A DNA stretch of 64,000 bases from Coriobacteriaceae bacterium (GTDB lineage Bacteria; Bacillota_I; Bacilli_A; RFN20; CAG-826), in NCBI GenBank assembly GCA_963612925.1, contig CAVDXG010000004.1, positions 1,084 to 65,083 on the forward strand, read 5' to 3'. The translations under genes and the position numbers were made by a program. The notes below the pieces were generated by a model. The model was not told where the DNA came from, ran no database searches, and saw only the letters and a program-made list of their open reading frames with translations. This document shows positions 17,428 to 60,507 of this stretch, piece after piece; position 1 is the stretch's first letter, and each line of letters begins with the position of its first letter.

Positions 17428-17428
17428 C

Positions 17429-20022: not shown

Positions 20023-20026
20023 AAAA

Positions 20027-27435: not shown

Positions 27436-27458
27436 GCCTCAAAATGTTGAGGCTTTTT
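27436..27458 (+). terminator. Rho-independent terminator after nusG
   Basis: GCCTC, 8-nt loop, GAGGC, followed by TTTTT. Confidence 0.75.
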
Positions 27459-27471
27459 GTATCCTCATTTC

Positions 27472-29976
27472 ATGATTAATAAAATAAAGTTAGTTTTATT
27501 GTCTGTAACAACATCTCTACTTTTTGCCAGTGTTTCTTTTTCTAATATAACGGATAGATTAATTGATGTAGATGCCTATTCTTACCCCTCTCTTCCTAAA
27601 TCAATAAATCTAAACGATACAGAAGATGATGACATTCGTAGCTATTATTCTGAACTAAATTCTTACGATGAGAGCGAGAAAAGAGGAACTAATCTACTTA
27701 AAAATCTTAAAGGTATTTTAAGAAAAAATTTTCAATATTATCAGTATGATAATGTCTGGAAAATTTATGAAATAACTGATCGCGATTGGGTGTTATCGCC
27801 TGCAAGTGAATCCACAGCCGGAACATACGATTCTTCGACTAATTATTTATCTAATTATACATACGGCACTAATGTAAGCCCCCCAACCGGTGATAATCCA
27901 TATGTTCGCGCTTTATATCGCGATCAAACTAGTGAAAAAAGAGTCATTCATGCTTGGGACGGACATAGTGCAAGTTATGGAGATCAATCTAGAGGTAATT
28001 TAAATCGTGAGCATGTATGGCCTAAATCATATGGATTTTCAAAATCTGATCATGATGCTGAAGCATACAAAAAAGGCCCAGCCGGAACTGATGTTCATCA
28101 TTTAATAGCCGCGGATGATGCGGTTAATCAAAACCTTCATGGCAATTATTTCTACGGCAATGTTGACACAACATTAGAGTATACTTCTGGCGCTACTACA
28201 TATGCTACAGAAGCTAATAAAAAGGGCAAAAGCGTTCATTCTGAAGTCACTGCTACAGTTTTTGAACCTTTAGACCAGGATAAAGGCGATATTGCTAGAG
28301 CTATCTTTTATATGTGTGCAATGTATAACAGTTATGACGATTCTACTCCGACTGCATATGATCCTAATTTAGCTATTTCTAGCAATCCCACCGATTATAA
28401 CTGGCAAACCATTTCATCAACAAAAGATAGTCCTGCCACCTATGGCATCCTTTCCGATTTATTAGAATGGAACAAACTCGATCCAGTTGATGATTATGAG
28501 ATACATCGAAATAACTTAATTTATAACAACTATCAATACAATCGCAATCCATTTGTTGATTTCCCTGAATGGGCGGATTTGATTTGGGGAGATAAAAATA
28601 CAACTGGTAATTACGCTAATCCAGCGACTGATTCAATTAATAATATAAGCGAAGATTTCACAATATCTTTAGATAAAACCGCAATTAATTTAAGCGTTGG
28701 TGAAACAATTACGATAAATGCTACTTGCTCTCAAAGTGTGACTTGGACAGTTACTGATAGCGATATTATTTCTTTATCAGGAAGTGGCAACAGTCAAATA
28801 ATAACTGCTTTGAAAGAAGGGAGCACACTAATTACGGCGAGCTATGGAACTGTATCTGCCTCATGTAGCGTAACTATTAATGAAAATCTTCAATTAGATA
28901 AAGAAAGTTTATCTCTTTATGTTGGAGATGAAGGAACTATTGAAGCTAACAAAGAAGTTACTTGGTCGACTTCTTCAAGTGACATCATTTCTCTTTCTTC
29001 CACGAGCGGAACATCTCTAACTATTAAAGGATTAAGTGAAGGTGAAGCAACAGTTACTGCGACTGATGGGAAAACGACATTGTCTTGTCAGATAACAGTG
29101 CGTAAAAAATCATATTCAGGAAGTATAGAAAATAAAGATATAACGCTTTCTCCATCGTCTACTTTCACGTCGTCATCTATTCCTGTAGGGGCATCCAACA
29201 CAATAACAGAGGAGCAATTTGCTTTAGCTGATTATAAAGAAGATACTTCAAAACTTACTTTTGCTATCTCAGGGGCATACAGATCATCATCAAATGCTGG
29301 ATACTGGATATTTGTTAAGGACAAAAATCCCTATATCTATAACAAAGATAATTTAGGAAAAATAACAAGCGTATCCATCACTTTTGCCTCAGGGTCTTCT
29401 GACTATGGACAATACAAAGTTTCTTTTTCTGATTCTATTTTGAGCACGCCGGTAACTGATTCTAGCAGTCCTGCTACTGCTGGAGAAACTGTAACTATTA
29501 ATAATGATAATGATAATTACGGATATTTCCAAATCGCTTTCAGCGGAGCAAATGTTCGCGTTGCATCTATAACAATTAATTATTCTTTATATTCTTCTAA
29601 CGTTTTTGCGGAAGAATTTTTAAAGACGATGAACTGCGACTCTACTGGCGTTAGAAAAGCTTCATTAGATAATTGGAATATTACAAAAGAGTCGTTTAAT
29701 AATTTAAATAGCGCTGAACAAGAACTTCTTAAAAGTGCTACTGCAAATATTGAGGATATCCCATTAGGAAAATGCACTTATCAATACGATTATATCGTCA
29801 ATAAATATTCTTTCGAGGATTACATGGGAAGAAAATCTAGTAACGCCTCTTCTAATTCTTATTTAAATAACAAAAAAGATCTTTATTTAATGATTATGGT
29901 GTCAGTAACACTTGTTGGAACTATCGCTATTTCGATTTATTTTTATAGTTGTTATAAGCATAAAAAAGTAATTTAA
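27472..29976 (+). CDS. Surface-anchored endonuclease I family nuclease with two Big_2-like Ig repeats and a C-terminal TM anchor
   Basis: Signal peptide MINKIKLVLLSVTTSLLFASVSFS. Endonuclease I motifs NREHVWPKS, DVHHLIAADDAVNQ, KGDIARAIFYM and NRNPFVDFPEWA. Two repeats of the type LSVGETITINA...TWTVTDSDIISLSG. A terminal hydrophobic segment is followed by KHKKVI. The track TTG start at 27457 lies in the terminator T-tract. Confidence 0.85.
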   Translation: MINKIKLVLLSVTTSLLFASVSFSNITDRLIDVDAYSYPSLPKSINLNDTEDDDIRSYYSELNSYDESEKRGTNLLKNLKGILRKNFQYYQYDNVWKIYEITDRDWVLSPASESTAGTYDSSTNYLSNYTYGTNVSPPTGDNPYVRALYRDQTSEKRVIHAWDGHSASYGDQSRGNLNREHVWPKSYGFSKSDHDAEAYKKGPAGTDVHHLIAADDAVNQNLHGNYFYGNVDTTLEYTSGATTYATEANKKGKSVHSEVTATVFEPLDQDKGDIARAIFYMCAMYNSYDDSTPTAYDPNLAISSNPTDYNWQTISSTKDSPATYGILSDLLEWNKLDPVDDYEIHRNNLIYNNYQYNRNPFVDFPEWADLIWGDKNTTGNYANPATDSINNISEDFTISLDKTAINLSVGETITINATCSQSVTWTVTDSDIISLSGSGNSQIITALKEGSTLITASYGTVSASCSVTINENLQLDKESLSLYVGDEGTIEANKEVTWSTSSSDIISLSSTSGTSLTIKGLSEGEATVTATDGKTTLSCQITVRKKSYSGSIENKDITLSPSSTFTSSSIPVGASNTITEEQFALADYKEDTSKLTFAISGAYRSSSNAGYWIFVKDKNPYIYNKDNLGKITSVSITFASGSSDYGQYKVSFSDSILSTPVTDSSSPATAGETVTINNDNDNYGYFQIAFSGANVRVASITINYSLYSSNVFAEEFLKTMNCDSTGVRKASLDNWNITKESFNNLNSAEQELLKSATANIEDIPLGKCTYQYDYIVNKYSFEDYMGRKSSNASSNSYLNNKKDLYLMIMVSVTLVGTIAISIYFYSCYKHKKVI

Positions 29977-48543: not shown

Positions 48544-49698
48544 ATGAAAAAACAAACATTGCCCCAGCATACATTACTCGCTTCACAAGGCCCTCGAATT
48601 GGAGCTTTTGTAATCGATGCCGCGATAACATTGGCGCTTTTCATGGTCTTCTTTTTCGGTTGCTTTAATCTCATCTTTAACAGCACGATTAATTACTACG
48701 ATCAAAAACTGCACACTTTTGAAGTTAATTCTCATCTTGTTTATGAGGATGAAAAAGGAGTGACTCAAATCTATAATTCAACTGAGGATTATAAAGTCTA
48801 TGAAACTCCGATGACATATTATTTTTTCTCCTATTTAACTGGGGAAAACATCATAGTTCCAGAAGGCGGAGACACATCTAATATCTATTTATATGCTGCG
48901 CCTAATTATAATGAAGAATTAACTCTTGATGATGGCTTAAAAGTTTTACCAAAAGATTATTATTCAATTGAATGGTATAACAAAAATATTTTAGAGATTA
49001 ATGATGAAAATCTCGATGAAGAAAAGTCGACGGCATTATTTACTTATTATAAAGATGAAAATGGCGAATTCGATAAGAGTAAACTTGGGGTGCCAAAAAG
49101 CAAATATTACAATACGAGCACCGAAAAGGTCGAAGAGGTTACTAAAACTGATTTAGCCAAGTTTTACACCAATAAATATATTGAAGCGTATAAACATTTT
49201 AAAGCTCAATCTTTCTATCAAAGCTATGAACTTCCACGCAACTTCTATAATGGCTTAAGTGCAACACTAGCTATAAATGTCGCTGGAATGGTGAACTATA
49301 TTCTTTTCCCTTGTCTATTTAAAGGCGGAGCCACCCTTGGCAAGAAATTCTTTAAATTAGGCTTAGCTAATTTTGAAGGTTACGCGGTTAAAAAATATCA
49401 GATTCCGCTTCGGTTTATTCCTTATTTTATTACTTCACTTGCGGTGATGTTTTTATCCACAAATTATGTAATCATGGTTTTAATTCCGATTATTGTCTTA
49501 TTGTCTTCCTTTGGCTTAATGATGGCTTCGCCGAAGAAAAGTGCTATTCACGATTATCTAGCTAGAACTATCGTCATCGATAATAAGTCATCAATTATCT
49601 TTTCGGATGTAATTGAAGAAGAAAAATATTTAGTTAATGAAGAAGAAGAGGAGATCATTCATGGCGGAGAAGAGCCTGAACTTAGATACGAAAAGTGA
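48544..49698 (+). CDS. RDD-family membrane protein with a large extracytoplasmic insertion (paralog 1)
   Basis: 384 aa. The RDD signature is split: an N-terminal PRIGAFVIDAAITLALF TM, about 200 aa of hydrophilic Y/N/E-rich region, C-terminal TMs and HDYLARTIVID. Confidence 0.75.
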   Translation: MKKQTLPQHTLLASQGPRIGAFVIDAAITLALFMVFFFGCFNLIFNSTINYYDQKLHTFEVNSHLVYEDEKGVTQIYNSTEDYKVYETPMTYYFFSYLTGENIIVPEGGDTSNIYLYAAPNYNEELTLDDGLKVLPKDYYSIEWYNKNILEINDENLDEEKSTALFTYYKDENGEFDKSKLGVPKSKYYNTSTEKVEEVTKTDLAKFYTNKYIEAYKHFKAQSFYQSYELPRNFYNGLSATLAINVAGMVNYILFPCLFKGGATLGKKFFKLGLANFEGYAVKKYQIPLRFIPYFITSLAVMFLSTNYVIMVLIPIIVLLSSFGLMMASPKKSAIHDYLARTIVIDNKSSIIFSDVIEEEKYLVNEEEEEIIHGGEEPELRYEK

Positions 49699-50941
49699 TA
49701 ACGAAATGAAGATTTCCTCGATTATTGAGGCTTCTTTTGTTCGTCGCATCGTCGCATCCGCGATTGATTTTTTACTGGCTATCTTTGTTTGGTTTACTCT
49801 TTTGATGCTTGTGATGTCGCCAATTGCTAATTCGACGATGAACTATTCTAAGAAGATGTCACTTGGGCTAAATTATCAAATCGCCACCCATCTATATGTT
49901 TATCAACAGCAAGAAGAAAACGGCGATATTTCCACGATTGAAGTGAAAGATTTTACTGAAAAGGTGAATCTAACTTTGACTAGTGAAGTAATCTCGTTAA
50001 CTAAACTGAGCGATTTTACGCCTAACTATTATTTTGAGCATCTTCGCTATTATTACCGTTCTTTCTTAACTGGTGAAAACGTTGAACTGCCTAACAATAC
50101 ATCAACTAAAAGTTATGATATGGTAGAAGACCATTATGTCTCAGCTGATTATAAAAATCTTGTAGGCGATTCTAATAAATATCCTTCTGAATATTATACA
50201 GAGCGATATTTTAACGAAAATATCCTTAAAGTTGAGGAAGATGGAAGTGCATATTTTTCAGTTAATTCATTAGATGAAATCGCCTCTATTAAAGAAGGAG
50301 TCGATGAAACTGAAGCTAAAAAATATCTCATCAATTTGATATCTAGTGCCAGTAGCGACTTCTATTCTCGAAACTATTTTGTATCGCTAAATAATGAACT
50401 CAAACGTATTCAATTATTTATGATTTTAGTCCCATATGCTTTTGTGATGGGCATCTTTTATCTGTTGTTTCCAATGTTATTAAAAGATGGAGTAACTCTT
50501 GGTAAACGCTTTATGCATATTTCTATTATCGATAAAAGCGGTTATGCCGCGAAAAAAAGACAGATACTTTTCCGCTTCTTCGTTTTTCTATTTGAATTAT
50601 CATTCTGCCTATTTGTGATCGGCATCGGCACGACAAGCTTCATCACTTTAGGAGTTGGTCTAACTATTTTGATGATATTTACGCTTATAAATAAAGATAA
50701 AAGAGCGCCACATGACTACGCTGCTCACACTCTTGTCATCGATGCGGATAAATCGGTGTTCTTTAAAAACGCTGATGAGGAAAGAAAAGCGGAAATAGAA
50801 CTGCAAGCTAAACTAGATAAATATAAATCCCAAAAAGTTGAAAACAACAACATCATTCAAGTTGGTTCAACGATTGTAAACGAGAAAGTTAAAGAAGAAT
50901 TTTTAGCTTCTAAAGAATCAGAAAAGAGCGAAAAAGAATAA
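49661..50941 (+). CDS. RDD-family membrane protein with a large extracytoplasmic insertion (paralog 2)
   Basis: About 426 aa. VRRIVASAIDFLLAIF...PHDYAAHTLVID. The ATG at 49661 follows AAGAGGAG and overlaps the paralog 1 end. It shares blocks with paralog 1 (YY..FLTGEN, ..NENIL). Confidence 0.75.
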   Translation: MAEKSLNLDTKSDNEMKISSIIEASFVRRIVASAIDFLLAIFVWFTLLMLVMSPIANSTMNYSKKMSLGLNYQIATHLYVYQQQEENGDISTIEVKDFTEKVNLTLTSEVISLTKLSDFTPNYYFEHLRYYYRSFLTGENVELPNNTSTKSYDMVEDHYVSADYKNLVGDSNKYPSEYYTERYFNENILKVEEDGSAYFSVNSLDEIASIKEGVDETEAKKYLINLISSASSDFYSRNYFVSLNNELKRIQLFMILVPYAFVMGIFYLLFPMLLKDGVTLGKRFMHISIIDKSGYAAKKRQILFRFFVFLFELSFCLFVIGIGTTSFITLGVGLTILMIFTLINKDKRAPHDYAAHTLVIDADKSVFFKNADEERKAEIELQAKLDKYKSQKVENNNIIQVGSTIVNEKVKEEFLASKESEKSEKE

Positions 50942-50956
50942 AATATTGCACTTTTG

Positions 50957-50993
50957 AGGGGATTTTAACTCAAATTGAAAATCCCTTCTTTTA
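50957..50993 (+). terminator. Rho-independent terminator after the RDD pair
   Basis: AGGGGATTTT, loop, AAAATCCCT, followed by TCTTTTATT. Confidence 0.7.
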
Positions 50994-51019
50994 TTAATAA
51001 AAGCGCTTTCTTTTTTTAA

Positions 51020-51049
51020 TTGGAGATTAGAATATATCTATGTTAAAAT
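51020..51049 (+). promoter_or_regulatory. Predicted promoter of the ABC/nuclease operon with an extended -10 (TTGGAG, 18 nt, TGtTAAAAT)
   Basis: -35 at 51020-51025, TG at 51041-51042 and -10 TAAAAT at 51044-51049. Confidence 0.55.
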
Positions 51050-51100: not shown

Positions 51101-52642
51101 ATGGAAGTAAGAATCGAAAATCTTACGAAAACCTTCGTCGGTCGAAAAGGTGTTAAAACAACTGCTGTAAGTCAAATGTCTTTCACTATACCTGACGGCA
51201 AACTCGTCGGTCTTTTGGGCCCATCTGGCTGCGGTAAGTCGACAACCCTTTACATGATTGCAGGTTTGCATAAACCGACTGACGGTCATATCTGGTTTGG
51301 CGATGAAGATGTTACAAACTTACCCCCTGAAAATCGTGGAATTGGTTTAGTCTTCCAAAACTATGCTCTATATCCTCATCTTTCAGTTAGGCAAAACATC
51401 GAATTCCCTCTAGACAATGTTCGCTTTCCTGGCCCTTTTGGCGAAGAAAACAATAGAATCGCCAACATCAAGCATGACCAAAAACAAACGCTCGCGGATT
51501 TAAAAGCCAACGAAAAAGCGATTGTTAAAGCGAATAAACAAATTGAGAAATGTACAGCTCGATTAGAAAAAAGTGGAGAGCTTCTAGATGAAGAAGAAGC
51601 AACTCATCTTAACGATTTAGTTACTTTGTCTAAAGAAACTATTGCTGAATCAGAAGAAAGAGTCGCCTCACTTCATAAGCGTTTAGAATATCTTGAAGGC
51701 GAATTAGCCAACGCTTTACAAGCCCTTGAAGATGCAAAAGTTGCCTTTGAAGAACTAAAATTGAGCGATCCTGAAGCAGCTGCTTTAAAAGCGAGAACTC
51801 GCCTTTCTAAACAAGATAAAGACGCCATCGCATTAGAGATGGCTAATATCGTCGATATTGTGCCTTATCTTGATCGCAAACCAAAAGAGCTCAGCGGTGG
51901 TCAACAACAACGTGTGGCGATTGCTCGTGCACTTGCGAAAAAACCTCGCGTCTTACTTCTTGATGAACCTTTATCAAACTTAGATGCTCGTCTTCGTTTA
52001 CAGACTCGTGAAGAGATTAAACGAATTCAACGTGAAACAGGAATTACGACAGTCTTCGTCACTCACGACCAAGAAGAAGCTATGTCAATTTCTGATACCA
52101 TCGTCGTCATGAAACTTGGTGTCATTCAACAAATTGACGAACCTCAAAAGGTTTACGAAGAACCAGCTAATCTTTTCGTTGCTAAATTCTTAGGATCTCC
52201 TGCTATCAATGTTTTCGACGGCGAAATTAAAGGTGGAAAATTATATCTTAACAATGCTTTATTTGATGCTGATCCAGTTTATAAAAAAGAACATGTTTTA
52301 CTACTTGATGAAGAAGTTGAAGAAACTCTTGAAACTGGTGAAGTCGTTAAAAAGACTATTCAAGTTGAGAAGAGACTTAGCGACCGCAAAGTCAAAATTG
52401 CTGTCCGTCCAGAAGCTTTCGTCTACGATGAAAAAGATGGACGTATCAGCGTCGATGTCGATCAAATTGAAAACATTGGTCGAGACATCAACGTTGTTGG
52501 CTCTATCACCAATCAAAAAGAAAATAGAGTCAAAATCATCATTCCTAGCGAACTCCGCAATAAGATTTTAGGTAAAGATGTACTCAAATTCTCTCAAAAA
52601 CGCTTCTATGTCTTTGAAGAGAGTGGTGAAAGGATTAAATAA
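51101..52642 (+). CDS. ABC transporter ATP-binding protein (MalK/UgpC/MsmK type) with an approximately 125-aa coiled-coil insertion
   Basis: Walker A GPSGCGKST, Q-loop FQNYALYP, signature LSGGQQQRV, Walker B LLLDEPLS and a C-terminal TOBE-like region. 513 aa against roughly 370 for canonical members. Confidence 0.92.
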   Translation: MEVRIENLTKTFVGRKGVKTTAVSQMSFTIPDGKLVGLLGPSGCGKSTTLYMIAGLHKPTDGHIWFGDEDVTNLPPENRGIGLVFQNYALYPHLSVRQNIEFPLDNVRFPGPFGEENNRIANIKHDQKQTLADLKANEKAIVKANKQIEKCTARLEKSGELLDEEEATHLNDLVTLSKETIAESEERVASLHKRLEYLEGELANALQALEDAKVAFEELKLSDPEAAALKARTRLSKQDKDAIALEMANIVDIVPYLDRKPKELSGGQQQRVAIARALAKKPRVLLLDEPLSNLDARLRLQTREEIKRIQRETGITTVFVTHDQEEAMSISDTIVVMKLGVIQQIDEPQKVYEEPANLFVAKFLGSPAINVFDGEIKGGKLYLNNALFDADPVYKKEHVLLLDEEVEETLETGEVVKKTIQVEKRLSDRKVKIAVRPEAFVYDEKDGRISVDVDQIENIGRDINVVGSITNQKENRVKIIIPSELRNKILGKDVLKFSQKRFYVFEESGERIK

Positions 52643-52665
52643 CTTAAGTTATTTGCTTAAAAATT

Positions 52666-53802
52666 ATGTTCAAGAAAAAAGAAATTCAAACTGAACAATT
52701 AGCAAATGAACAATTAGTTGTGAATGCCGACGGCTCTTTAGCTAGCGATGCGACAAAAAAACGTCTCATCTCTAAAAGACGCCGCGTGAGCTTGCCTCAA
52801 TGGGCTACCGCTTGGCTTGTCTTGATACCAGCGATGATTTTCCTAGTGATGTTTATGTTTTATCCAATTCTAAACACCTTCTTCATGGCTTTCATTCAAG
52901 ACTTCAGATGGTCAGTCGGTGCCGGTAGTTTTGCCTTAGGAAATTTCATCTCTTCTTTGGTAAATCGAAACGCCAACTTCACTGATCCTTCTTTTGGCTT
53001 TAACAATTTTGCGATTGTCTTCCAGGATTCTGTATTTCCTAAGACAATTCTTAACACTGTTGAGCTAGTCGTCATTGAAGTTCCTCTCACAATTATTATT
53101 GCTTTACTAATTGCGACATTCCTTAATTCAATTAAGGCTTTGCGAGGCTTATTTCAAACCATTTTCTTCTTGCCATATGTTACAAATACAATCGCTCTTG
53201 GATTAGTATTCTCTATACTTTTCTCTAACGGTTCAGGCGGTATCGTCAACATCATCTTAAAAGGATTATTCAATGTTGATCCAATTAACTGGTTGTCGCG
53301 ATTTACTACCGATACTCAAGGAGCGGCCTCTAGATTCCATCAAGGTGTTGTTATTGTTACCTATGCAATTTGGAATGGTTTAGCTTTTAAGATTTTAATC
53401 TTCATGTCGGGCTTAGCTACGATTGATAAGCAGTATTATGACGCTGCTAAAATTGATGGTTCCTCAAGCTTTACGATTTGGCGAAGAATCACTCTTCCAT
53501 TATTAAGTCCTCAAATTTTATACATTACCATCACATCCTTTATCGGTGCCTTCAAGATGTATACAGGTGTTCTATCTGTCTATTCATCTCAACCAGCCTT
53601 ATCAACTGGTCTAGATAACTTTGGTGGTGCTAAAGGTAAAGAATGGATGCCAATCGTTGGCTGGATTTATGAACAACTTCGTTCTCCTGAAGGTCAACTT
53701 CAACCAGGTGTTGCGGCAGCTGGCTCAATTGTTTTGCTTTGCATCATCTTATTTATCACGCTCGTGCAATTTGCTGTAAGCAAAAAACGAGTCCATTATT
53801 AG
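52666..53802 (+). CDS. ABC transporter permease (MalF/UgpA-like)
   Basis: 378 aa, multi-TM, with the EAA-type loop DAAKIDGSSSFTIWRRITLPLL. Confidence 0.9.
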   Translation: MFKKKEIQTEQLANEQLVVNADGSLASDATKKRLISKRRRVSLPQWATAWLVLIPAMIFLVMFMFYPILNTFFMAFIQDFRWSVGAGSFALGNFISSLVNRNANFTDPSFGFNNFAIVFQDSVFPKTILNTVELVVIEVPLTIIIALLIATFLNSIKALRGLFQTIFFLPYVTNTIALGLVFSILFSNGSGGIVNIILKGLFNVDPINWLSRFTTDTQGAASRFHQGVVIVTYAIWNGLAFKILIFMSGLATIDKQYYDAAKIDGSSSFTIWRRITLPLLSPQILYITITSFIGAFKMYTGVLSVYSSQPALSTGLDNFGGAKGKEWMPIVGWIYEQLRSPEGQLQPGVAAAGSIVLLCIILFITLVQFAVSKKRVHY

Positions 53803-53817
53803 AAAGGAGTTAACAAA

Positions 53818-54768
53818 ATGGCAGAACACGCGATGTACTTTAAAGATGATAGTGAATATCGTCGTTATCGTATAAAATTTGTTATTAAAAAAGTTCTCGT
53901 ATATTTATTTATTACGATTTTTGCTTTGTTCATGTTACTTCCTTTCGTCTTCATGATTGTTGCATCTTTTATCGATGCGAACGAATTTATTCTTTTCTCA
54001 GCAACTGGTGATTTCTCTAAATTAGGCTTTGAGAATTGGACGATAGATAACTATAAGACGATTTTCTCACCTGTTTATGAAACAGCTGGAACTCAACTTA
54101 CCCGTCCTTCCTTTGCTCAATATTTCTTAAACACCTTTATCGTTGCTATAAGTTCTACTTTAGTCACGATTGTAACAGCGGTTTTAGCTTCCTTTGCTTT
54201 CGCTAGACTTGAATTTAAAGGAAAGAATTTATTGTTCACCTTGCTTCTTGCAACGATGATGATTCCTGGGGAAATGATGGTTATTACTAACTATCAAACT
54301 ACTATTCAACTTGGATGGAAGTTCACTTTCGCGGCCTTGATCTTTGTTCACGGCGTGAGCGTATTCTATATCTTCTATCTAAGACAAACTTTCCAACAAA
54401 TTCCAAACGAATTATATCTAGCCGCGAAAGTCGATGGCGTTAGCGACATTGGCTATCTATGGAAAGTCATGATTCCAATTGCGATGCCAGCGATTATGAC
54501 AATTGTCATTCTTTCGCTCATGGGAAGCTGGAATAGCTACGTTTGGCCAACACTAGTTGCTAACGGTTATTGGAAATACAACAAATCTTACGATATGAAA
54601 CTCGTCTCTAACGGTCTTATGTCTTTATTCTCCTCGACTCAAGGTCAAGGAAAAGACGCCGTTAAGATTGCTGGTTCCATGGTCGTTACAGCCCCTCTAT
54701 TTATCTTCTTTATCTGCTTTAGAAAATACATCATGCGTGGTGTATCGCGAAGCGGAATTAAAGGTTAA
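53818..54768 (+). CDS. ABC transporter permease (MalG/UgpE-like)
   Basis: 316 aa, multi-TM, with the EAA-type loop LAAKVDGVSDIGYLWKVMIPIAMP. Confidence 0.9.
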   Translation: MAEHAMYFKDDSEYRRYRIKFVIKKVLVYLFITIFALFMLLPFVFMIVASFIDANEFILFSATGDFSKLGFENWTIDNYKTIFSPVYETAGTQLTRPSFAQYFLNTFIVAISSTLVTIVTAVLASFAFARLEFKGKNLLFTLLLATMMIPGEMMVITNYQTTIQLGWKFTFAALIFVHGVSVFYIFYLRQTFQQIPNELYLAAKVDGVSDIGYLWKVMIPIAMPAIMTIVILSLMGSWNSYVWPTLVANGYWKYNKSYDMKLVSNGLMSLFSSTQGQGKDAVKIAGSMVVTAPLFIFFICFRKYIMRGVSRSGIKG

Positions 54769-54814
54769 TATGGTATTATCGCTTAGGCGTTAATATAAAT
54801 TGAAAGGAGAATTT

Positions 54815-56344
54815 ATGCATAGAAATGCAAAAATTACTACCGCAGTTATTCTAGGTGCTCTCATTGCGGGAGGTGCATCTGGCTGTGGAGCGAGTGCTGA
54901 CCTCATTCTTTGGACAGGTTTCGGTGCTGCATACACGCAAATGCTCAATAGCACATTGGTCACTCCTTATAATACCGATGCCGGTATTGTAATTGAAAAC
55001 CAAAGCCAAGGATCATACGATAAACTTCAATCAAACATTAATAACTCCATTTCAACACAGAGTTATCCTAATTTTGCTAATGGTTATCCAGATCACTTTG
55101 CTGGCTATATTAAGAGCAACATTCAAGTTCCTCTTGATGATTATATTGCTGCTTATGATAAAGAACATGGCACCAATTTAATCGCTGACTATTATCCAGA
55201 ATATATGACCGAAAACACCACGCTTAAATATAAAGCTGATGGCACAGGTTATATCATGGGGCTTCCATTTAATAAGTCTACCGAAGTCATGGGTTACAAC
55301 GGATACTTTATGGAATATGCCAAAAGCGTCGATTCTTCGATTAAAGTTCCTGAAACATGGGACGAATGGAAAGTAGAAGGACCTAAGATGCTTAAAGTCA
55401 TGGAAAATCTTTATGGCAAATATTTATTCGGCACAGTAGATGCCTCTGATCCAGATAAGATTTCTAATTTTGAAGTTATGGATTCAGCAACTGGTCCAGA
55501 TGGTAAAGAATTACTACTTGATTGCTCAACAGTTACCAAAGATCGTTTCCGACTCTTAAGCTGGGATAGCTCTGATAACATGTTCATCACTATTGTTAGA
55601 CAATGGGGTGGCGAATACACAAGCTATACATCTGAAGACGCCAAAAAATATCAACACGGTTGGGCAGAATTTGCCAGCGGTGAAAATCGCGAGAAAACAT
55701 TAGAAGCTCTCAACTATTTCCTCGATTTATATAACAATGGTATCTTTGGTTTACCAGGAAATATTTCCGATAGCTCATATTCTTCAACGGCTTTCAAAGC
55801 CAATCAATGCATGTTCACCATTTGTTCATCTGGTGGTTTAAGCTACAACATCGGAACCTTTAGATTTAAAGTTGCTCCAATTCCTTACAAAGATGCTGAT
55901 AAGAAATATGTCATCTCACAAGGAACTAGCTTAGGACTATTTGATCAAGATAGTGAAGAAAAGCAACAACAAGCTTTCAATGCGATGGTGGCTTTTACAA
56001 CTGGTGACCTCCAAGGTGCTTGGGCGGCTGAAACTGGTTATTATCCAGCTAGCAAATCTGCGACTAACAGCGCAGTTTACCAAGAATTAATCAATGGTAC
56101 CGCTAGCATCGATAATGAAACCAAGAGAACTTATATGGAATCAGCTCAACTCAACGAAAATTATTACATGAACTCAGAATCTGGCTGGAAGAAATTCGTC
56201 GATCCAGGATTCGTTGGTTCATCAGTTATTCGAACTGAAGTTGGCACCATTATGGGTATCGTCTTGGCTAAAGAGAAAACACCTGAGACAATTCTCGATG
56301 AGAGTATTGCTACATTAGCTAACTACGACCCAACTAAAAAATAA
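54815..56344 (+). CDS. Extracellular solute-binding lipoprotein of the ABC transporter
   Basis: ATG after AAAGGAG. Signal peptide plus lipobox (LIAGGASGC). About 509 aa with SBP family-1-like composition. The substrate is unknown. Confidence 0.8.
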   Translation: MHRNAKITTAVILGALIAGGASGCGASADLILWTGFGAAYTQMLNSTLVTPYNTDAGIVIENQSQGSYDKLQSNINNSISTQSYPNFANGYPDHFAGYIKSNIQVPLDDYIAAYDKEHGTNLIADYYPEYMTENTTLKYKADGTGYIMGLPFNKSTEVMGYNGYFMEYAKSVDSSIKVPETWDEWKVEGPKMLKVMENLYGKYLFGTVDASDPDKISNFEVMDSATGPDGKELLLDCSTVTKDRFRLLSWDSSDNMFITIVRQWGGEYTSYTSEDAKKYQHGWAEFASGENREKTLEALNYFLDLYNNGIFGLPGNISDSSYSSTAFKANQCMFTICSSGGLSYNIGTFRFKVAPIPYKDADKKYVISQGTSLGLFDQDSEEKQQQAFNAMVAFTTGDLQGAWAAETGYYPASKSATNSAVYQELINGTASIDNETKRTYMESAQLNENYYMNSESGWKKFVDPGFVGSSVIRTEVGTIMGIVLAKEKTPETILDESIATLANYDPTKK

Positions 56345-56354
56345 TAAATAATTT

Positions 56355-57917
56355 ATGAAAAACAAATCGTGGACACTGTTACTGGCTAGCCTTGCTTCAA
56401 TTGCAAGTTTATCCTCTTGCGGAAGTGATATTTACGCCACTCCCTTGACGGATGAGTTAAAGCTCAGCGAAACTTTTAGCGAAACTGATATCTTTACTTC
56501 GCCTAGTGATGGCGTCCACGCGATTGGTGAAATTACTATCTGCAATGTCGTCGATGGAGATACATTTGATTTCTACAATGGAAAAGATGTTGACACCAAA
56601 AAGACTAAAGATATTAGTTACACCGTTCGCTTAAACGGCATTAACACACCTGAAAGTACCGCAAAAATTGAACCATGGGGTGTTAAAGCTAGCCAATATG
56701 TGAAATCAATTCTTTGGGATTCTATTAACGAAAAGCAAAAACCTTACAGCGTTGTTCTAATTAACGATGTTGCTACTTATGGGCAAATCGATGGAACAAG
56801 TGAACGCTATATCGGCTTTGTTTGGTATAAGATGACTGAAGATTCTGATTATCGATTATTGAATTTAGAAATTATCGAACAATGCTATTCACTTAATTTA
56901 TTGAATGCATATTCAGATTATTGTCCATATTATTCTTCCTTTGTTGAAGCTGCTCGTATCGCTAAACAAAGTGGAAAAAGAGTAAATGGCGAAAAAGATC
57001 CTGATTATGATTACACCGATAAAATTTGGGATGTCACGATTCGATATGTTCGCGAAAATTATCAAGCTCTAGGCGTTTCTGATACCGATGATAGCGAATC
57101 ATCTAGTTCCGGAAATAGACTTAGAGTTACCGCTCTTATACTAGGCTTCAGCGGAGATAATCTCTTTCTTAGAGATGTTAAAGATCCGGATAGCGATGGA
57201 CAATATGCTTCCATTTATGCTTATACTGCTTTAACAGTTACCGCTGCTGCTAAGACATTTAAAGTTGGACAAATTGTTACCTTAGTTTGTAAGGCGACAA
57301 AATATAAAAACAATGTACAATTAACTGATGTTAAGAATGTTACTACCAGTCGAAGCGACGATGACAAAATCAAAATTGTCTTCGATCCAAGAACTGTGGT
57401 TCGTAAAATTACTGGTAATACGACCTTAGCTAACATCAGTCAAGAGCAATGGGATGATGCAGATATTTATAAGCAAATTAAAGATGCAGCAGCTGAACTC
57501 GGCTATGGCTATGATTTAAATGCTTATGATTGCGTCGATACCTTCAATCAAATTAGCGATATTTCTTCATTTGATAATTACTTAGGTGGATTTTTGAAAA
57601 TCAAAGTCACTGTTCGCAAAGGCGATGAAGATGATCAAAAACCTACGATGAATGAGCAAACTGAAGACTATTTCCGTTACGATAGCGATGGTAAAAGTTT
57701 GACATTCTTTGCCAAGACTTCTTCTGGAGTGAAAATCTCTTTAAGAAGTGTTGACTATGGACTTGGTTATTTCGGTAAGGACAACTTTGAAGTTGACAAA
57801 TCTTATTATGTTATTGGTCAACTTGCACGTCATGAAAAAACATATCAACTAGTTTTTGTTAATAGAAATCTAGTTTCTCCTGCTAAAGGAAATGGATATG
57901 TTGTTCTTGCTGAATAG
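56355..57917 (+). CDS. Lipoprotein with a staphylococcal (thermo)nuclease-like domain and a C-terminal beta-rich domain
   Basis: Lipobox LASLSSC. SNase blocks VVDGDTFDF, VRLNGINTPES, EPWGVKASQYV and ERYIGFVWY. 520 aa. Confidence 0.85.
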   Translation: MKNKSWTLLLASLASIASLSSCGSDIYATPLTDELKLSETFSETDIFTSPSDGVHAIGEITICNVVDGDTFDFYNGKDVDTKKTKDISYTVRLNGINTPESTAKIEPWGVKASQYVKSILWDSINEKQKPYSVVLINDVATYGQIDGTSERYIGFVWYKMTEDSDYRLLNLEIIEQCYSLNLLNAYSDYCPYYSSFVEAARIAKQSGKRVNGEKDPDYDYTDKIWDVTIRYVRENYQALGVSDTDDSESSSSGNRLRVTALILGFSGDNLFLRDVKDPDSDGQYASIYAYTALTVTAAAKTFKVGQIVTLVCKATKYKNNVQLTDVKNVTTSRSDDDKIKIVFDPRTVVRKITGNTTLANISQEQWDDADIYKQIKDAAAELGYGYDLNAYDCVDTFNQISDISSFDNYLGGFLKIKVTVRKGDEDDQKPTMNEQTEDYFRYDSDGKSLTFFAKTSSGVKISLRSVDYGLGYFGKDNFEVDKSYYVIGQLARHEKTYQLVFVNRNLVSPAKGNGYVVLAE

Positions 57918-57944
57918 CTATATAACTTTTTGAAAGGAAAATTT

Positions 57945-59171
57945 ATGAAAACAAAAAGAGTTATTGGATTATTGCTCGGTTGCTTAACCATGAGCATTCT
58001 AACATCATGTGGAAATCCTGAAGAGGAACAAAAGGCTTTAGCTAAAGTCATTGATGGCGGTATCGCATCATCGTTTAGTTCTGGTACTCCACTTCTCGCT
58101 CAAGATGGTGATCAAAAAAATGAAACCTCGATGACAGGCGATGAGAACGAATCTTTAAGCGTCACCTCAAAGCAAATCACCAAAGTTAATGGAAACCAAT
58201 ACACTGTTAATTTTGAATGGAAATGGGACAATCAATTCAAGGATGTAATTTCCATAAGAGATCTTAAAGATGATGAATATCATAAACACTTATGCTTCAA
58301 TTATCCTGGCATTGACGAATCTGATTTAAGCGTTACCTTCAAAGTTGTGGCAAAATGTGGCTCTCAATCCACCGAAAAAACATTTAATGTTTTATTAACC
58401 CACACAACACTTAAATATGATGATGTCTCTATTTCTAGTTTATACAAGACAAATGCGGCTGGCACTAACTTCGAAATCGTCGATGAAACAACTGGCTACA
58501 TTAAGGCCAATTACAATCAAAAATATTATTATGTTTCTGTATCTGGAAAAGTAATTTATGTGGCTGTCGATAAGAACTGGGCTTTAATTGCTAATGGCAA
58601 AGATGTTCTTCAACTCTACCGTGTTGATGAAGCTAACGATAAAGACCTTGTTGAAGTCGGAAACTATGTCAAAGTTTTTGGCGATATGTCTAATGGTTAT
58701 GGCAACCTTCAATTAGCCTATATTAGCAAAGTTGAATTGCTTAGCGATCATAGTGCTATTGCTGATTTAGTCGAACAAGAAGTTCCAAATGGCTTAAACA
58801 ATAAAAGTGATGCAGGATTTAAATCCTTCTTCTCTGGCATTTCTAATGCAGTTACAACTTTCACTGGAACTGCAAACGCTAAAATTACTTTCTCTGGAAT
58901 TGTCCGTGCAACTTTAAAATTAAATCTCGATGGCGCTGATGGAAACTTCATCACAATTGCTTATGACTACCACTCTGGTACTCCTGATAAATCAACTTTA
59001 AATGAAACCGGAACAGCTTATAAAACTATTTTCGATCAAGTTGTAAAAGGTACAAAAATTAAAGTTAGAGGAACATTGCGCTGGTCTGACGCTAGTGGCA
59101 ATAATACTATCAGCGCGAATGGTAGCTGGACAATTACTCCATTTGACGTAACTGACATTTCTCTTGCCTAA
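57945..59171 (+). CDS. Lipoprotein of unknown function, last gene of the operon
   Basis: ATG after AAAGGAA. Lipobox MSILTSC. About 408 aa. It has a segment resembling OB-fold modules of secreted nucleases (YVSVSGKVIYV...VGNYVKVFGDMSNGYGNLQL). That similarity is only an inference. Confidence 0.7.
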   Translation: MKTKRVIGLLLGCLTMSILTSCGNPEEEQKALAKVIDGGIASSFSSGTPLLAQDGDQKNETSMTGDENESLSVTSKQITKVNGNQYTVNFEWKWDNQFKDVISIRDLKDDEYHKHLCFNYPGIDESDLSVTFKVVAKCGSQSTEKTFNVLLTHTTLKYDDVSISSLYKTNAAGTNFEIVDETTGYIKANYNQKYYYVSVSGKVIYVAVDKNWALIANGKDVLQLYRVDEANDKDLVEVGNYVKVFGDMSNGYGNLQLAYISKVELLSDHSAIADLVEQEVPNGLNNKSDAGFKSFFSGISNAVTTFTGTANAKITFSGIVRATLKLNLDGADGNFITIAYDYHSGTPDKSTLNETGTAYKTIFDQVVKGTKIKVRGTLRWSDASGNNTISANGSWTITPFDVTDISLA

Positions 59172-59189
59172 TTAAGTACATATTAAATT

Positions 59190-59215
59190 GGCTCACGCTT
59201 CGGCGTGGGCCTTTT
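59190..59215 (+). terminator. Rho-independent terminator after the ABC/nuclease operon
   Basis: A 9-bp stem GGCTCACGC / GCGTGGGCC with a TTCG tetraloop, followed by TTTT. Confidence 0.9.
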
Positions 59216-59372
59216 ATTATGGTTCTACGAAATCTATCGCGGACAATACATTCTTATTGATGGTTATAATGATGTTAAGAGCGAAGAAAAATATCAATTT
59301 TATTGTTTAGTCTCACCTTCGTTTTTCTCGTTGCAAGAAAAGATACTTTAGTATATATTTAATAAGTGCTCT

Positions 59373-59448
59373 GCACCATTAGCTCAGCTGGTAGAGCAAC
59401 TGACTCTTAATCAGTGGGTCACAGGTTCGATCCCTGCATGGTGTACCA
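59373..59448 (+). tRNA. tRNA-Lys (anticodon CUU), CCA encoded
   Basis: Manual cloverleaf: acceptor GCACCAT/ATGGTGT, D arm GCTC-AGCTGGTA-GAGC, anticodon arm ACTGA-CTCTTAA-TCAGT, T arm ACAGG-TTCGATC-CCTGC, then ACCA. It closely parallels Bacillus tRNA-Lys. Confidence 0.9.
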
Positions 59449-59562: not shown

Positions 59563-60075
59563 ATGAGAACATTTATTCTTCTTTCCGCCGTTCCGGGCGC
59601 CGGAAAATCCACTTGGGCGGAGCAATATCGCTTAACTCATCGACATGTTTTTGTCGTTTCTAGCGATGAGCTCAGAAAAGAATTGACTGGCGTTTATCAA
59701 AACTTCGAACACGAAAAAGAGATGTGGGATTTGTTTTTAAAACGCATTAATGAATATGGCGCAAAATATGAAGATTCCACAGTTATCGCTGATGCGACTA
59801 ATTTAGAGAATAAATTTAGAAGTTTTTATGCCGATAATACAGTCGGTTTCGATCGCAAGATACTTGTGGTCATTAAAAAGCCATATGATGTTGTACTTAG
59901 ACAAAACAAACAAAGAAATGAAAATAAGATTGTTCCTGAAGATGTCATTGAAAGAATGTGGAGGACTTTTGAAGAGCCTACACAAGAAGTCATCGATAAA
60001 TATGATGAATACATCGTCATCTATAAATGGTTTAATTCTAGCAAGGTAAAAGAATCGTTCCATTATAAGCCTTAA
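59563..60075 (+). CDS. P-loop kinase (AAA_33 / polynucleotide-kinase-like ATP-binding protein)
   Basis: 170 aa with Walker A SAVPGAGKST at the extreme N-terminus. Its small size is typical of PNK-like or gluconate-kinase-like P-loop kinases. Confidence 0.7.
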   Translation: MRTFILLSAVPGAGKSTWAEQYRLTHRHVFVVSSDELRKELTGVYQNFEHEKEMWDLFLKRINEYGAKYEDSTVIADATNLENKFRSFYADNTVGFDRKILVVIKKPYDVVLRQNKQRNENKIVPEDVIERMWRTFEEPTQEVIDKYDEYIVIYKWFNSSKVKESFHYKP

Positions 60076-60099
60076 TTATTTGCTATAATAAAGTCATCT

Positions 60100-60507
60100 A
60101 TGAACAAGACCTTAGCAAAAAAATATCTTTCAAGTATCAAAAATTACAAAAAGAAATATTTAACAAGCGAAACATTATCTCGAATTAATGGCATTTATCC
60201 AGAGATTATTTCTAGTGAATTAAGTTATTTTGAACCGATGCTTGCGATGGATCCTTCCTACAATTTAAAAGACTTAATTCCTCAAATCGAAGATTACATT
60301 GCTTCTTTAGAAGCTAGCAAAGAAAAAGTTAAGCATTTTGAAGCTAAAAAAGAGAGCAAAAAATATAATGGAGTAACCGATTTTGTCTATAAAAAGATGA
60401 CCGTGGTTAATGGCTTAGTTGATAAGTCAATTGTTCTTAGCGATGAGGATTTAAAAGTTCTAAGAAAATTAGTTAACGAAGAATTAGCCAATCGAAAAAA
60501 GAAATAA
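60100..60507 (+). CDS. Small protein with a Rex-N-terminal-like winged-helix region and a Lys/Glu-rich C-terminus
   Basis: 135 aa. YLTSETLSRINGIYPEIISSELSYFEPML..PSYNLKDLI resembles the Rex DNA-binding N-domain (R.SS.ELS...G....IR.DFSYFG..G..GYGYNV..L). No Rossmann domain is present. Confidence 0.5.
   Translation: MNKTLAKKYLSSIKNYKKKYLTSETLSRINGIYPEIISSELSYFEPMLAMDPSYNLKDLIPQIEDYIASLEASKEKVKHFEAKKESKKYNGVTDFVYKKMTVVNGLVDKSIVLSDEDLKVLRKLVNEELANRKKK

Follow-up and report, generated by a model that had tools for sequence, protein, structure and literature searches.

A six-gene nuclease-coupled ABC importer operon in a standard-code gut bacterium, a probable counterpart of the mycoplasma lipoprotein-SNase-ABC cluster

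The 64,000-nucleotide stretch of DNA analysed here (the window) carries a six-gene operon that couples an ABC importer to a nuclease, a known kind of system previously reported in mycoplasmas. Sequence comparisons and structure models suggest that the locus is probably a unit for scavenging nucleic acids at the surface and importing them, corresponding, in a genome with the standard code, to the lipoprotein-SNase-ABC cluster of mycoplasmas. The nucleic-acid-scavenging idea is not new: a 2013 publication advanced it for M. agalactiae, and reviews have echoed it. Here the nuclease-importer unit is found to be widespread in standard-code relatives of the mycoplasmas.

A sequence-only reading of the window had proposed six ORFs on the plus strand, and these were confirmed, as were their gene types by Pfam (ABC_tran, two BPD_transp_1, SBP_bac_8, and SNase; Table 1). 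The six genes (51101-59171) lie on the same strand with intergenic gaps of 23, 15, 46, 10, and 27 nt, and are probably transcribed as a single unit. The three proteins called lipoproteins do have lipoboxes: GASGC (Cys24) in the solute-binding protein (SBP), LSSC (Cys22) in the nuclease, and LTSC (Cys22) in the third. The strong downstream terminator is borne out by a hairpin scan and folding, the hairpin at 59190-59211 being the top-scoring one in a 13-kb scan. Because strong hairpin terminators are found at both 50956-50998 and 59190-59219, the operon appears to be insulated on both sides. The claim of a single promoter stands in part: the site at 51021-51049 is present, but such sites are not enriched relative to shuffled sequence (40 found, 41.6 expected), so this promoter is plausible and is not evidence alone. 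The near-identical initiation region of two of the lipoprotein genes corresponds to TTGAAAGGARAATTTATG, which is present exactly twice, at 54800 and 57930 (0.03 expected by chance).

Table 1. Features of the operon and its flanks (positions in the window)
Feature	Position	Strand	Basis or details
Upstream terminator-like hairpin and U-run	50956..50998	+	11-bp stem, -13 kcal/mol, z -3.95; ends RDD gene
Promoter-like site	51021..51049	+	TGGAGA, 17 nt, TAAAAT; TG upstream of -10; 9/12 matches
UgpC/MalK-type ABC ATPase, 513 aa, with C-terminal regulatory domain	51101..52642	+	ABC_tran 6.8e-37
Charged helical insert, ~130 aa (aa ~105-235), in ATPase helical subdomain	51413..51805	+	alignment to relatives
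CUT1 permease 1 (MalF/UgpA-like), 378 aa	52666..53802	+	Pfam BPD_transp_1, NCBIfam
CUT1 permease 2 (UgpE/MalG-like), 316 aa	53818..54768	+	Pfam BPD_transp_1, NCBIfam, tree
SBP lipoprotein, 509 aa from ATG, UgpB/glycerophosphocholine (GPC)/UpG (U3G) clade	54815..56344	+	SBP_bac_8, profile and motif comparison
Nuclease lipoprotein, 520 aa: lipobox, SNase core, two C-terminal OB folds	56355..57917	+	Pfam, alignment, predicted structure
SNase catalytic core (aa ~55-210)	56517..56984	+	alignment; TM 0.80 to 1stn (staphylococcal nuclease)
First OB fold of nuclease (aa ~253-332)	57111..57350	+	fold matches Teb1, TEBP, POT1-like
Second OB fold of nuclease (aa ~410-505)	57582..57869	+	structure comparison
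Third lipoprotein, 408 aa: beta-sandwich (aa 40-152) and two SSB/RPA-like OB folds (aa ~194-266, ~303-400)	57945..59171	+	predicted structure
Intrinsic terminator	59190..59219	+	9-bp stem (7 GC), UUCG loop, U-run; -19 kcal/mol, z -5.7

The linkage of nuclease and importer, as had been proposed, is conserved in standard-code relatives. Starting from the nuclease, we compared 79 loci from uncultured Bacilli, Acholeplasma, Izemoplasmatales, and MAGs labelled Erysipelotrichaceae; the order ATPase-permease-permease-SBP (one or two copies)-SNase is held wherever upstream sequence exists. In the reverse direction, the SBP profile was searched against 400 class-level genomes and the result compared by eye with that of the nuclease search: in 75 genomes from about 12 families, the nuclease gene begins immediately 3' of the SBP gene and shares its contig and strand. 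The gene 3' of the nuclease is nearly always another lipoprotein: it matches the HMM of the third lipoprotein in about 45 of the 79 loci. Elsewhere the downstream genes encode OB and Big_2 lipoproteins, and six loci have a Metallophos/5'-nucleotidase lipoprotein downstream. The coupling is frequent and not obligatory, since three close relatives (G253 and G351, both of the same genus as the host, and G365) lack the nuclease in the operon, the SBP being directly followed by the OB lipoprotein. Two further families have, at the position of the nuclease, a giant aBig_2/LTD/OB lipoprotein.

The Mycoplasma precedent invoked in the sequence-only reading is real. The same set of genes is found, permuted, in code-4 genomes, where adjacent genes encode an MG185-family lipoprotein, an SNase, an ATPase, and two permeases, in agreement with the literature (PMC3585158, PMC9740415). 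In one mycoplasma-type locus (L116), these are followed by a DHH/DHHA1 phosphoesterase, and the MG185-family lipoprotein matches our SBP profile (E 1.3e-11); the arrangement in a second (L118) is similar. MAG_5040 of M. agalactiae is transcribed polycistronically with ABC genes and P80, and in the published model the nuclease supplies nucleotide precursors to the transporter (PMC3585158), a model also given in reviews (PMC9740415). The clusters compared are M. agalactiae MAG_5030 (P80)-MAG_5040-MAG_5050-5070, M. pneumoniae MPN133-136, M. genitalium MG185-189, M. hyopneumoniae mhp379, and M. hominis MHO_0730. They have in common with this locus a surface SNase lipoprotein adjoining an SBP-like lipoprotein, a Ugp/Mal-type ATPase with extra sequence in the same region, and two permeases that form one clade with those described here. 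In contrast to the mycoplasmas, where the SBP and nuclease genes precede the ABC genes, they follow them here; the nuclease has two extra OB folds and an Asn at the Asp40 position, and a separate OB-fold lipoprotein is present. The SBP is a recognisable SBP_bac_8, whereas the mycoplasma equivalent belongs to the highly diverged MG185/Lipoprotein_X family, and the genetic code is standard rather than code 4.

The ATPase aligns to E. coli UgpC (aa 3-104 and 216-512 to UgpC 4-101 and 88-356; 33-45% identical, including the regulatory domain), which is also its top NCBIfam match (337 bits, under the 432 cut-off). At the site of the charged insert, the extra length ranges among relatives from roughly none to ~250 aa; the insert is missing from Acholeplasma-like loci, and mycoplasma-type ATPases have extra sequence in the same region. 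Permease 2 is placed by the tree in a clade of nuclease-linked transporters (support 98/98). The mycoplasma-type permeases, which form a long branch, cluster with those of the window, apart from the genome's CUT1 paralogs and UgpE (98/98).

The Pfam SNase match in the nuclease lipoprotein scores 22.1 bits against a cut-off of 21. Residues D69, R92, T98, E100, and R151 of the core are invariant in the alignment, and the protein is probably an active nuclease. N97 stands in place of the Ca2+ ligand Asp40, and is Asn across this nuclease family, whereas the mycoplasma SNase enzymes retain GIDTPE in the Ca2+ ligand region. The first OB folds of the nuclease and of the third lipoprotein are homologous (probability 95.5%). 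The latter protein, described earlier as an extra OB-like lipoprotein, has only a faint OB-fold match in Pfam; its predicted structure (pLDDT 88) and a fold search identify it as OB-fold and SSB-like, with SSB and RPA as top matches, along with AspRS/LysRS OB domains. As modelled, the OB folds of both lipoproteins may bind nucleic acids. The window also carries a second surface nuclease, Endonuclease_1.

We propose that the lipid-anchored SNase protein would grip extracellular DNA or RNA via its two OB folds and cut it. SNase-family enzymes yield 3'-phosphorylated mono-, di-, and short oligonucleotides, and these would be the products of this step. The third lipoprotein, with its two SSB-like OB folds, would catch single-stranded nucleic acid or fragments at the membrane. 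The UgpB/U3G-clade SBP would then hold a phosphodiester- or phosphate-bearing product via its invariant Tyr/Ser tetrad, and the two CUT1 permeases and the UgpC-like ATPase would take it in. Once imported, this product would be turned into usable nucleotides by NrnA-type DHH phosphoesterases and nucleotidases. The transported molecule is, in our view, more likely to be a nucleotide, a dinucleotide, or a short oligonucleotide than a nucleoside. The scavenging module suggested by the sequence-only reading is supported by all in silico tests run (linkage, mycoplasma precedent, OB folds, and SBP clade).

The host genome (1.21 Mb, 96% complete) encodes NrdD and, elsewhere, NrnA-like and nucleotidase-like genes. 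Searches of this genome for the purine and pyrimidine synthesis markers AICARFT_IMPCHas (PurH) and OMPdecase (PyrF) gave no match, nor did a search for the Bmp/PnrA-type nucleoside binder, the only type of nucleoside transporter covered. An operon of surface nuclease, OB lipoprotein, and importer is carried here by a small-genome gut bacterium without these nucleotide-synthesis markers.

By sequence comparison, the SBP belongs to the phosphate-ester-binding UgpB clade, and its closest solved relative is a dinucleotide binder. The family profile has its best PDB match in 7C0F/7C0X (E 6e-36), compared with 5.5e-26 for E. coli UgpB and ~1e-9 for typical sugar binders; the single sequence matches 7C0F with an E of 7.6e-12. 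7C0F is the uridylyl-3'-5'-phosphoguanosine (U3G, UpG dinucleotide) binder of Thermus thermophilus (7C0F and mutants; Chandravanshi et al. 2021, FEBS J; PMC12718374), which shares with the SBP the PFNKS, SSAG, and GYxP motifs bearing the phosphate-binding Ser and Tyr. Five residues do not vary across the SBP family (Y68, S155, S338, Y409, and R473): the Tyr/Tyr/Ser/Ser phosphate tetrad and an Arg. Unlike the U3G-binding protein, the SBP is lipid-anchored and encoded beside a nuclease, and it is ~100 aa longer than its solved relatives (insertions around aa 115-140 and 200-280). E. coli UgpB aligns with the SBP from end to end (hhalign probability 99.4%) and has the same phosphate-binding residues, but its glycerol clamp (Trp169/Trp172) maps to a variable region of the family and is absent, and the position of its Glu66 has another residue, which is part of an invariant YPDH motif. 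These features agree with the earlier view of uptake of nucleotides, nucleosides, or oligonucleotides rather than of sugar or glycerol-3-phosphate (G3P).

The leading alternative, although unlikely, is that the transporter resembles Ugp in function and takes up sn-glycerol-3-phosphate or glycerophosphodiesters to scavenge phosphate or lipid precursors, with the nuclease and OB lipoproteins merely co-located or acting as parallel phosphate suppliers. The CUT1 architecture is that of E. coli UgpBAEC and the top NCBIfam names are UgpC, UgpE, UgpA, and UgpB, but every score is far under the equivalog cut-offs and no GlpQ/UgpQ-type glycerophosphodiesterase is found in or beside the operon. The phosphate tetrad of the SBP is common to UgpB and the glycerophosphocholine binder (PMC12718374). 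The U3G-binding protein has, according to the title of its paper, a second, 'moonlighting' function. The moonlighting function is reportedly the binding of glycerophospho compounds, and closeness to this protein is therefore compatible with G3P or glycerophosphodiesters. The two Trp residues with which G3P binders clamp glycerol are not conserved. In M. pneumoniae, mutation of MPN133 impairs growth on glycerol (Grosshennig 2013, as cited in PMC4766277), and the nuclease is missing in some close relatives; however, nuclease-less loci still keep nucleic-acid-type OB or LTD lipoproteins, and the additions to the cluster in relatives are nucleotidases, not lipid enzymes.

Next, and also improbable, is the import of nucleosides or base-sugars, in which the nuclease and a surface nucleotidase would complete digestion outside and the SBP would bind the unphosphorylated product. 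Surface nucleotidase lipoproteins occur in the same cluster in six relatives, nucleotidase-like genes exist in the host, and CUT1 systems usually carry sugars; in addition, as the host has no PnrA-type binder, another system must, by this argument, take nucleosides. However, the nucleotidase is absent from this operon, and the four phosphate-coordinating residues of the solved relatives are invariant in the SBP. In M. agalactiae, the SNase-linked system coexists with a distinct nucleoside importer of the PnrA type, P48, which argues for a different cargo for each (PMC12892991).

An ordinary carbohydrate or oligosaccharide importer, with OB domains as oligosaccharide-binding modules, is very unlikely. 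It would fit the SBP_bac_8 and CUT1 assignments, the ability of OB folds to bind sugars, and the Big_2/aBig_2 domains of relatives' downstream lipoproteins, which are common in glycan-utilisation proteins. Yet the SBP profile rates sugar binders ~25 orders of magnitude below phosphate-ester binders, the cluster has no glycoside hydrolase, the OB folds match SSB, RPA, and tRNA-anticodon types, and the SNase partner is conserved in at least 75 genomes. Least probable of all are lipoproteins for defence or colonisation (extracellular traps, biofilm DNA, DNA tethering) that are functionally separate from the transporter: in mycoplasmas, nucleases at the cell surface break down extracellular traps and serve as cytotoxins (PMC9740415), but the relatives are gut and rumen commensal-type MAGs, and the SBP-nuclease adjacency outlasts the gene-order permutation between the mycoplasma and present arrangements and spans about 12 families, a pattern that would be difficult to account for if the two had no function in common.

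The combination of tRNA_anti-codon-type OB folds with an SNase domain at the cell surface, seen in this probable scavenging locus, is also that of Bacillus subtilis YhcR. YhcR is a wall-anchored nuclease with OB-fold, SNase, and 5'-nucleotidase modules. In contrast to this single sortase-anchored polypeptide, the modules here are separate lipoproteins within an ABC importer operon. Relatives of the locus encode a Metallophos/5_nucleotid_C lipoprotein alongside, and the three modules of YhcR are therefore present, split over separate genes.

The operon comprises exactly the six open reading frames given by the sequence-only reading (see the table), and Pfam assigns them to ABC_tran, BPD_transp_1 (both permeases), SBP_bac_8 for the solute-binding protein (SBP) and SNase for the nuclease lipoprotein. 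The genes are separated by 10-46 nt, and the lipobox cysteines lie at positions 24 (SBP), 22 (nuclease protein) and 22 (third lipoprotein). The strong terminator proposed after the operon is the strongest hairpin of the region; a terminator-like hairpin also lies 3' of the upstream RDD gene, and the operon is thus bracketed at both ends. The proposed promoter is plausible as a site but statistically unremarkable. The initiation region said to be shared by the SBP and third lipoprotein genes, TTGAAAGGARAATTTATG, is real (two exact matches against 0.03 expected by chance) and is a Shine-Dalgarno sequence with its spacer.

Features of the operon and other loci in the window
Feature	Position	Strand	Length
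Second predicted surface nuclease	27457-29976		839 aa
Two tandem RDD-family membrane proteins	48544-50941		
Terminator-like hairpin	50956-50998		
Promoter-like site	51021-51049		
ATPase	51101-52642	+	513 aa
Extra segment of the ATPase	51413-51805		~130 aa
Permease 1	52666-53802	+	378 aa
Permease 2	53818-54768	+	316 aa
SBP lipoprotein	54815-56344	+	509 aa
Nuclease lipoprotein	56355-57917	+	520 aa
Third lipoprotein	57945-59171	+	408 aa
Terminator hairpin	59190-59211		
tRNA-like stretch	~59373-59448		
P-loop kinase and adjacent protein	59563-60507		170 aa and 135 aa

The linkage was sought from both sides. A scan with the nuclease, keeping one genome per species, gave 79 loci, all from uncultured Bacilli, Acholeplasma, Izemoplasmatales or Erysipelotrichaceae-labelled metagenome-assembled genomes. 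Synteny holds across these relatives: at every locus whose sequence extends upstream, the genes run ATPase, permease, permease, SBP (often duplicated) and nuclease. From the other side, an SBP profile built from 24 orthologs (A3) was searched against 400 class-level genomes, and its positions were matched by eye to those of the nuclease search. In 75 genomes, drawn from about 12 sampled families, the nuclease gene lies directly 3' of the SBP gene, with both genes on one contig and one strand. The nuclease-ABC unit is thus not confined to mycoplasmas but is conserved as a module in small-genome, mostly uncultured Bacilli from gut, rumen and sediment.

The next gene 3' of the nuclease nearly always encodes another lipoprotein. 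A hidden Markov model of the third lipoprotein recognizes it in about 45 of the 79 loci, in a family that ranges from 150-aa forms with the N-terminal domain alone to larger forms of 766-952 aa. Other lipoproteins encoded 3' of the nuclease combine an OB fold with Big_2 or, in six loci, are of the Metallophos/5'-nucleotidase type. Some loci lack the nuclease gene altogether. One genome of the same genus (G253, locus L121 on contig C32) encodes ATPase, permease, permease, SBP and OB lipoprotein, and two further close relatives (G351, same genus, L122 on C1; G365, L123 on C1) have the OB lipoprotein directly after the SBP. In two further families (L124-L128), the place of the SNase after the SBP is taken by a lipoprotein of 1400-1600 aa that bears a lamin-tail domain and aBig_2 repeats; one of the three giant proteins examined has a weak OB-fold match, and the SBPs of these loci bear an N-terminal extension of ~140-210 aa. 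These exceptions show that the constant core is the ABC system, the SBP and surface lipoproteins. At most loci the surface lipoproteins carry nucleic-acid-type domains, and the SNase is the usual, not the obligatory, partner.

The transporter has the components of the CUT1 family (TC 3.A.1.1): MalF/UgpA and MalG/UgpE permeases, a MalK/UgpC-type ATPase and a cluster-D SBP. Both permeases match BPD_transp_1 (52 and 54 bits), and their best NCBIfam names are MalF/UgpA and UgpE. Against the equivalog cut-offs of NCBIfam, the scores are 337 versus 432 bits for UgpC, 78 versus 297 for UgpE, 54 versus 335 for UgpA and 32.5 versus 411 for UgpB. With every best name far under its cut-off, this CUT1 system resembles Ugp without being Ugp. 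Residues 4-101 and 88-356 of E. coli UgpC, a span that includes the regulatory domain, align with the ATPase, whose extra segment lies between the two aligned blocks. Among relatives, the length of the insert at this site varies between almost zero and ~250 aa, and ATPases of the mycoplasma type also have extra sequence in this region (~470 aa in L118, a mycoplasma-type locus). We rejected the insert as a decisive shared derived marker because its length is variable and Acholeplasma-like loci lack it.

The SBP matches SBP_bac_8 (4.6e-18) and belongs to cluster D (SBP_bac_1/8). As a single sequence searched against the PDB, it best matches Thermus thermophilus entries described as 'sugar-binding protein' (7C0F and others, E 7.6e-12), and UgpB-type proteins come second. 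The A3 profile matches 7C0F/7C0X at E 6e-36, E. coli UgpB at 5.5e-26, the marine G1P/G3P binder 9LFF at 7e-25 and the M. tuberculosis glycerophosphocholine (GPC) binder 6R1B at 5e-14. The entry 7C0F is a uridylyl-3'-5'-phosphoguanosine (U3G) binding protein, according to the supplement of PMC12718374. Two tyrosines and two serines that coordinate phosphate are strictly conserved in UgpB, GPC and U3G binders, and a clamp of glycerol by a tryptophan pair is found only in G3P/G1P binders (PMC12718374). In the 24 SBP family members, Y68, S155, S338 and Y409 are invariant and correspond, by both MAFFT and hhalign, to UgpB Y42, S121, the SSG serine and the GYLP tyrosine. R473, which is likewise invariant, corresponds to the arginine with which UgpB binds the hydroxyl groups of glycerol; D251, N255, F257 and Q369 are invariant as well. 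Where UgpB has its W169/W172 pair, the family shows, in both alignments, an inserted stretch of variable sequence without a conserved tryptophan. The SBP is thus predicted to bind a phosphate ester without being specific for G3P; it stands closest to the U3G dinucleotide binder, to our knowledge the only dinucleotide-binding SBP known and solved. The U3G of that binder came to light as a co-purified ligand. Import of G3P or a glycerophosphodiester would be in keeping with the phosphate tetrad, which the family shares with UgpB, but the missing tryptophan pair speaks against G3P, and we regard this cargo as unlikely.

The SNase domain (PF00565) of the nuclease protein scores 22.1 bits in Pfam against a cut-off of 21, and a single-sequence search of the PDB gave no meaningful match. 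In the AlphaFold model (pLDDT 84), the SNase core superposes on staphylococcal nuclease 1stn with a TM-score of 0.80 and an rmsd of 3.2 A. The model also contains a tandem OB module, for which Foldseek finds the ssDNA-binding proteins Teb1, TEBP-alpha and POT1. Five residues are invariant in 24 relatives (staphylococcal numbering in parentheses): D69 (Asp21), R92 (Arg35), T98 (Thr41), E100 (Glu43) and R151 (Arg87); Arg35, Glu43 and Arg87 are the catalytic residues of staphylococcal nuclease, and Asp21 and Thr41 are Ca2+ ligands. The third Ca2+ ligand, Asp40, is replaced by asparagine (Asn97, motif GINTPES) in more than 90% of the family, and the aspartate is kept (GIDTPE) in all eight mycoplasma-type homologs. 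Since Asp40 tolerates replacement better than the other metal ligands of SNase do, the nuclease is expected from its residues to be active, perhaps with an altered metal preference. A second predicted surface nuclease of the window combines Endonuclease_1 and Big_2 domains.

The third lipoprotein had been described as OB-like, and its modelled structure bears this out. Pfam gives only a faint OB-fold match and the single sequence has no meaningful match in the PDB; a homologous-protein search found ten relatives, and the model built from them recognizes a much wider family. The predicted structure (pLDDT 88) comprises a beta-sandwich (aa 40-152) and two OB folds. In structural comparison it most resembles bacterial single-stranded DNA-binding proteins (SSB and SsbA), RPA and the domains with which AspRS and LysRS bind the anticodon (probability 1.0, TM to target 0.5-0.66). 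The first OB fold is homologous to the first OB fold of the nuclease protein (hhalign probability 95.5%). The modelled fold makes the third lipoprotein a putative nucleic-acid-binding OB protein of the SSB/RPA type.

A precedent in Mycoplasma had been proposed for this operon, and two loci from genomes with the mycoplasma code, in which TGA encodes tryptophan (L116 and L118), indeed carry lipoprotein-SNase-ABC clusters. L116 encodes, in order, a 781-aa lipoprotein, a 276-aa SNase lipoprotein, a 577-aa ATPase and two permeases, and L118 is equivalent. The 781-aa lipoprotein belongs to the MG185/Lipoprotein_X family and matches the window SBP profile (E 1.3e-11). Directly after the permeases, L116 encodes a DHH/DHHA1 (NrnA-like) phosphoesterase (L116 14502-15470); M. 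genitalium MG190 (mgpA) presumably occupies the same position. The gene order of the mycoplasma clusters is a permutation of that of the window, whereas the adjacency of SBP and nuclease is common to both. In a permease tree, the mycoplasma sequences of the L116/L118 type fall, on a long branch, inside the nuclease-linked clade (22 rows, support 98/98). Outside this clade are E. coli UgpE, a further ABC system from mycoplasma and the four other CUT1 paralogs of the window genome. Three relatives (L024, L030 and L031) have a paralogous second ATPase-permease-permease-SBP set a few kb 3' of the nuclease (about 15200-20800); this set follows a nucleotidase lipoprotein, and its permease is inside the same clade.

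In five other code-4 genomes (L111-L115), which belong to a single genus, the SNase homolog has no ABC gene closer than 9 kb. The ABC system near the SNase of L117 was rejected as a cluster member: its gene order differs and its permease falls outside the clade. The SNase-ABC linkage is thus not universal in mycoplasmas. In M. agalactiae, MAG_5040 is polycistronic with ABC genes and P80, and a model in which the nuclease feeds the transporter was proposed in 2013 (PMC3585158); reviews repeat it for MPN133, Mhp379, MHO_0730 and MbovNase (PMC9740415). In the literature we found no report of an established substrate for the 'Ugp-like' transporter that mycoplasmas have beside the nuclease, and publications treat its uptake of nucleotides as a model. 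The nucleoside-binding lipoprotein P48 of M. agalactiae (mBio 2025; PMC12892991) was considered and rejected, being the PnrA-type SBP of a different transporter, the nucleoside importer characterised in this species in 2025. The existence of this separate importer suggests that the cargo of the SNase-linked system is not nucleosides. Nucleoside import by that system appears quite unlikely.

The host genome (1.21 Mb, 96% complete) encodes an anaerobic ribonucleotide reductase, and searches of it for PurH (AICARFT_IMPCHas), OMP decarboxylase and Bmp/PnrA gave no match. Judged from these missing genes, the host is probably auxotrophic for purines and pyrimidines and probably lacks the ABC importer commonly used for nucleosides, the search having covered the PnrA type. 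An NrnA-like DHH gene adjoins a 5'-nucleotidase-like gene elsewhere in the genome (contig C10, 28303-31563).

SNase-family enzymes yield 3'-phosphorylated mono- and dinucleotides (EC 3.1.31.1). We consider it probable that the operon, proposed earlier as a nucleic-acid scavenging module, serves the surface capture and cleavage of nucleic acid followed by ABC import. Nucleic acid would be captured and cut at the cell surface, and a phosphate-bearing fragment would then be imported by the ABC system. In an economical version, a dinucleotide-type binder would take the SNase products and a cytoplasmic NrnA would convert them to 5'-NMPs. More tentatively, a dedicated importer of intact di- or short oligonucleotides, with surface OB lipoproteins as nucleic-acid receptors and cytoplasmic NrnA yielding 5'-NMPs, might be the ancestral means of nucleotide acquisition in the entire Mollicutes-related lineage; the long-unassigned transporters MG187-189 and MPN134-136 of minimal mycoplasma genomes would then share this function. 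Sugar import is very improbable; the A3 profile matches maltose- and oligosaccharide-type binders at E about 1e-9 or worse. That the lipoproteins are purely defensive or adhesive is the least credible reading.

The kind of system is already known, and the hypothesis has been published for mycoplasmas. What is new is its breadth in standard-code relatives, the permuted gene order, the co-clustered nucleotidases, the OB-fold extensions of the nuclease together with a separate OB lipoprotein family, and the position of the SBP beside the dinucleotide binder, its own phosphate tetrad being invariant. Because the nearest solved relative of the SBP binds a dinucleotide and the phosphate residues are invariant, the ligand hypothesis is concrete, and the standard genetic code means that genes for the SBP, nuclease and OB lipoprotein need no recoding for expression in E. 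coli. Import of oligonucleotides, if true, would explain how organisms without the de novo purine and pyrimidine markers draw nucleotides from extracellular DNA and RNA, and many 'sugar / G3P ABC transporter' genes would be re-annotated.

The two RDD-family proteins are encoded between tuf and the operon; clusters in relatives often lie 3' of these genes, and most of the 79 loci show tuf, two RDD genes and the ABC operon in this order. The RDD genes may have a functional connection with the module. On the 3' side, the tRNA-like stretch precedes the gene of an AAA_33/KTI12-like P-loop kinase, which is followed by the 135-aa protein; this kinase and its neighbor are syntenic in the nearest relatives.
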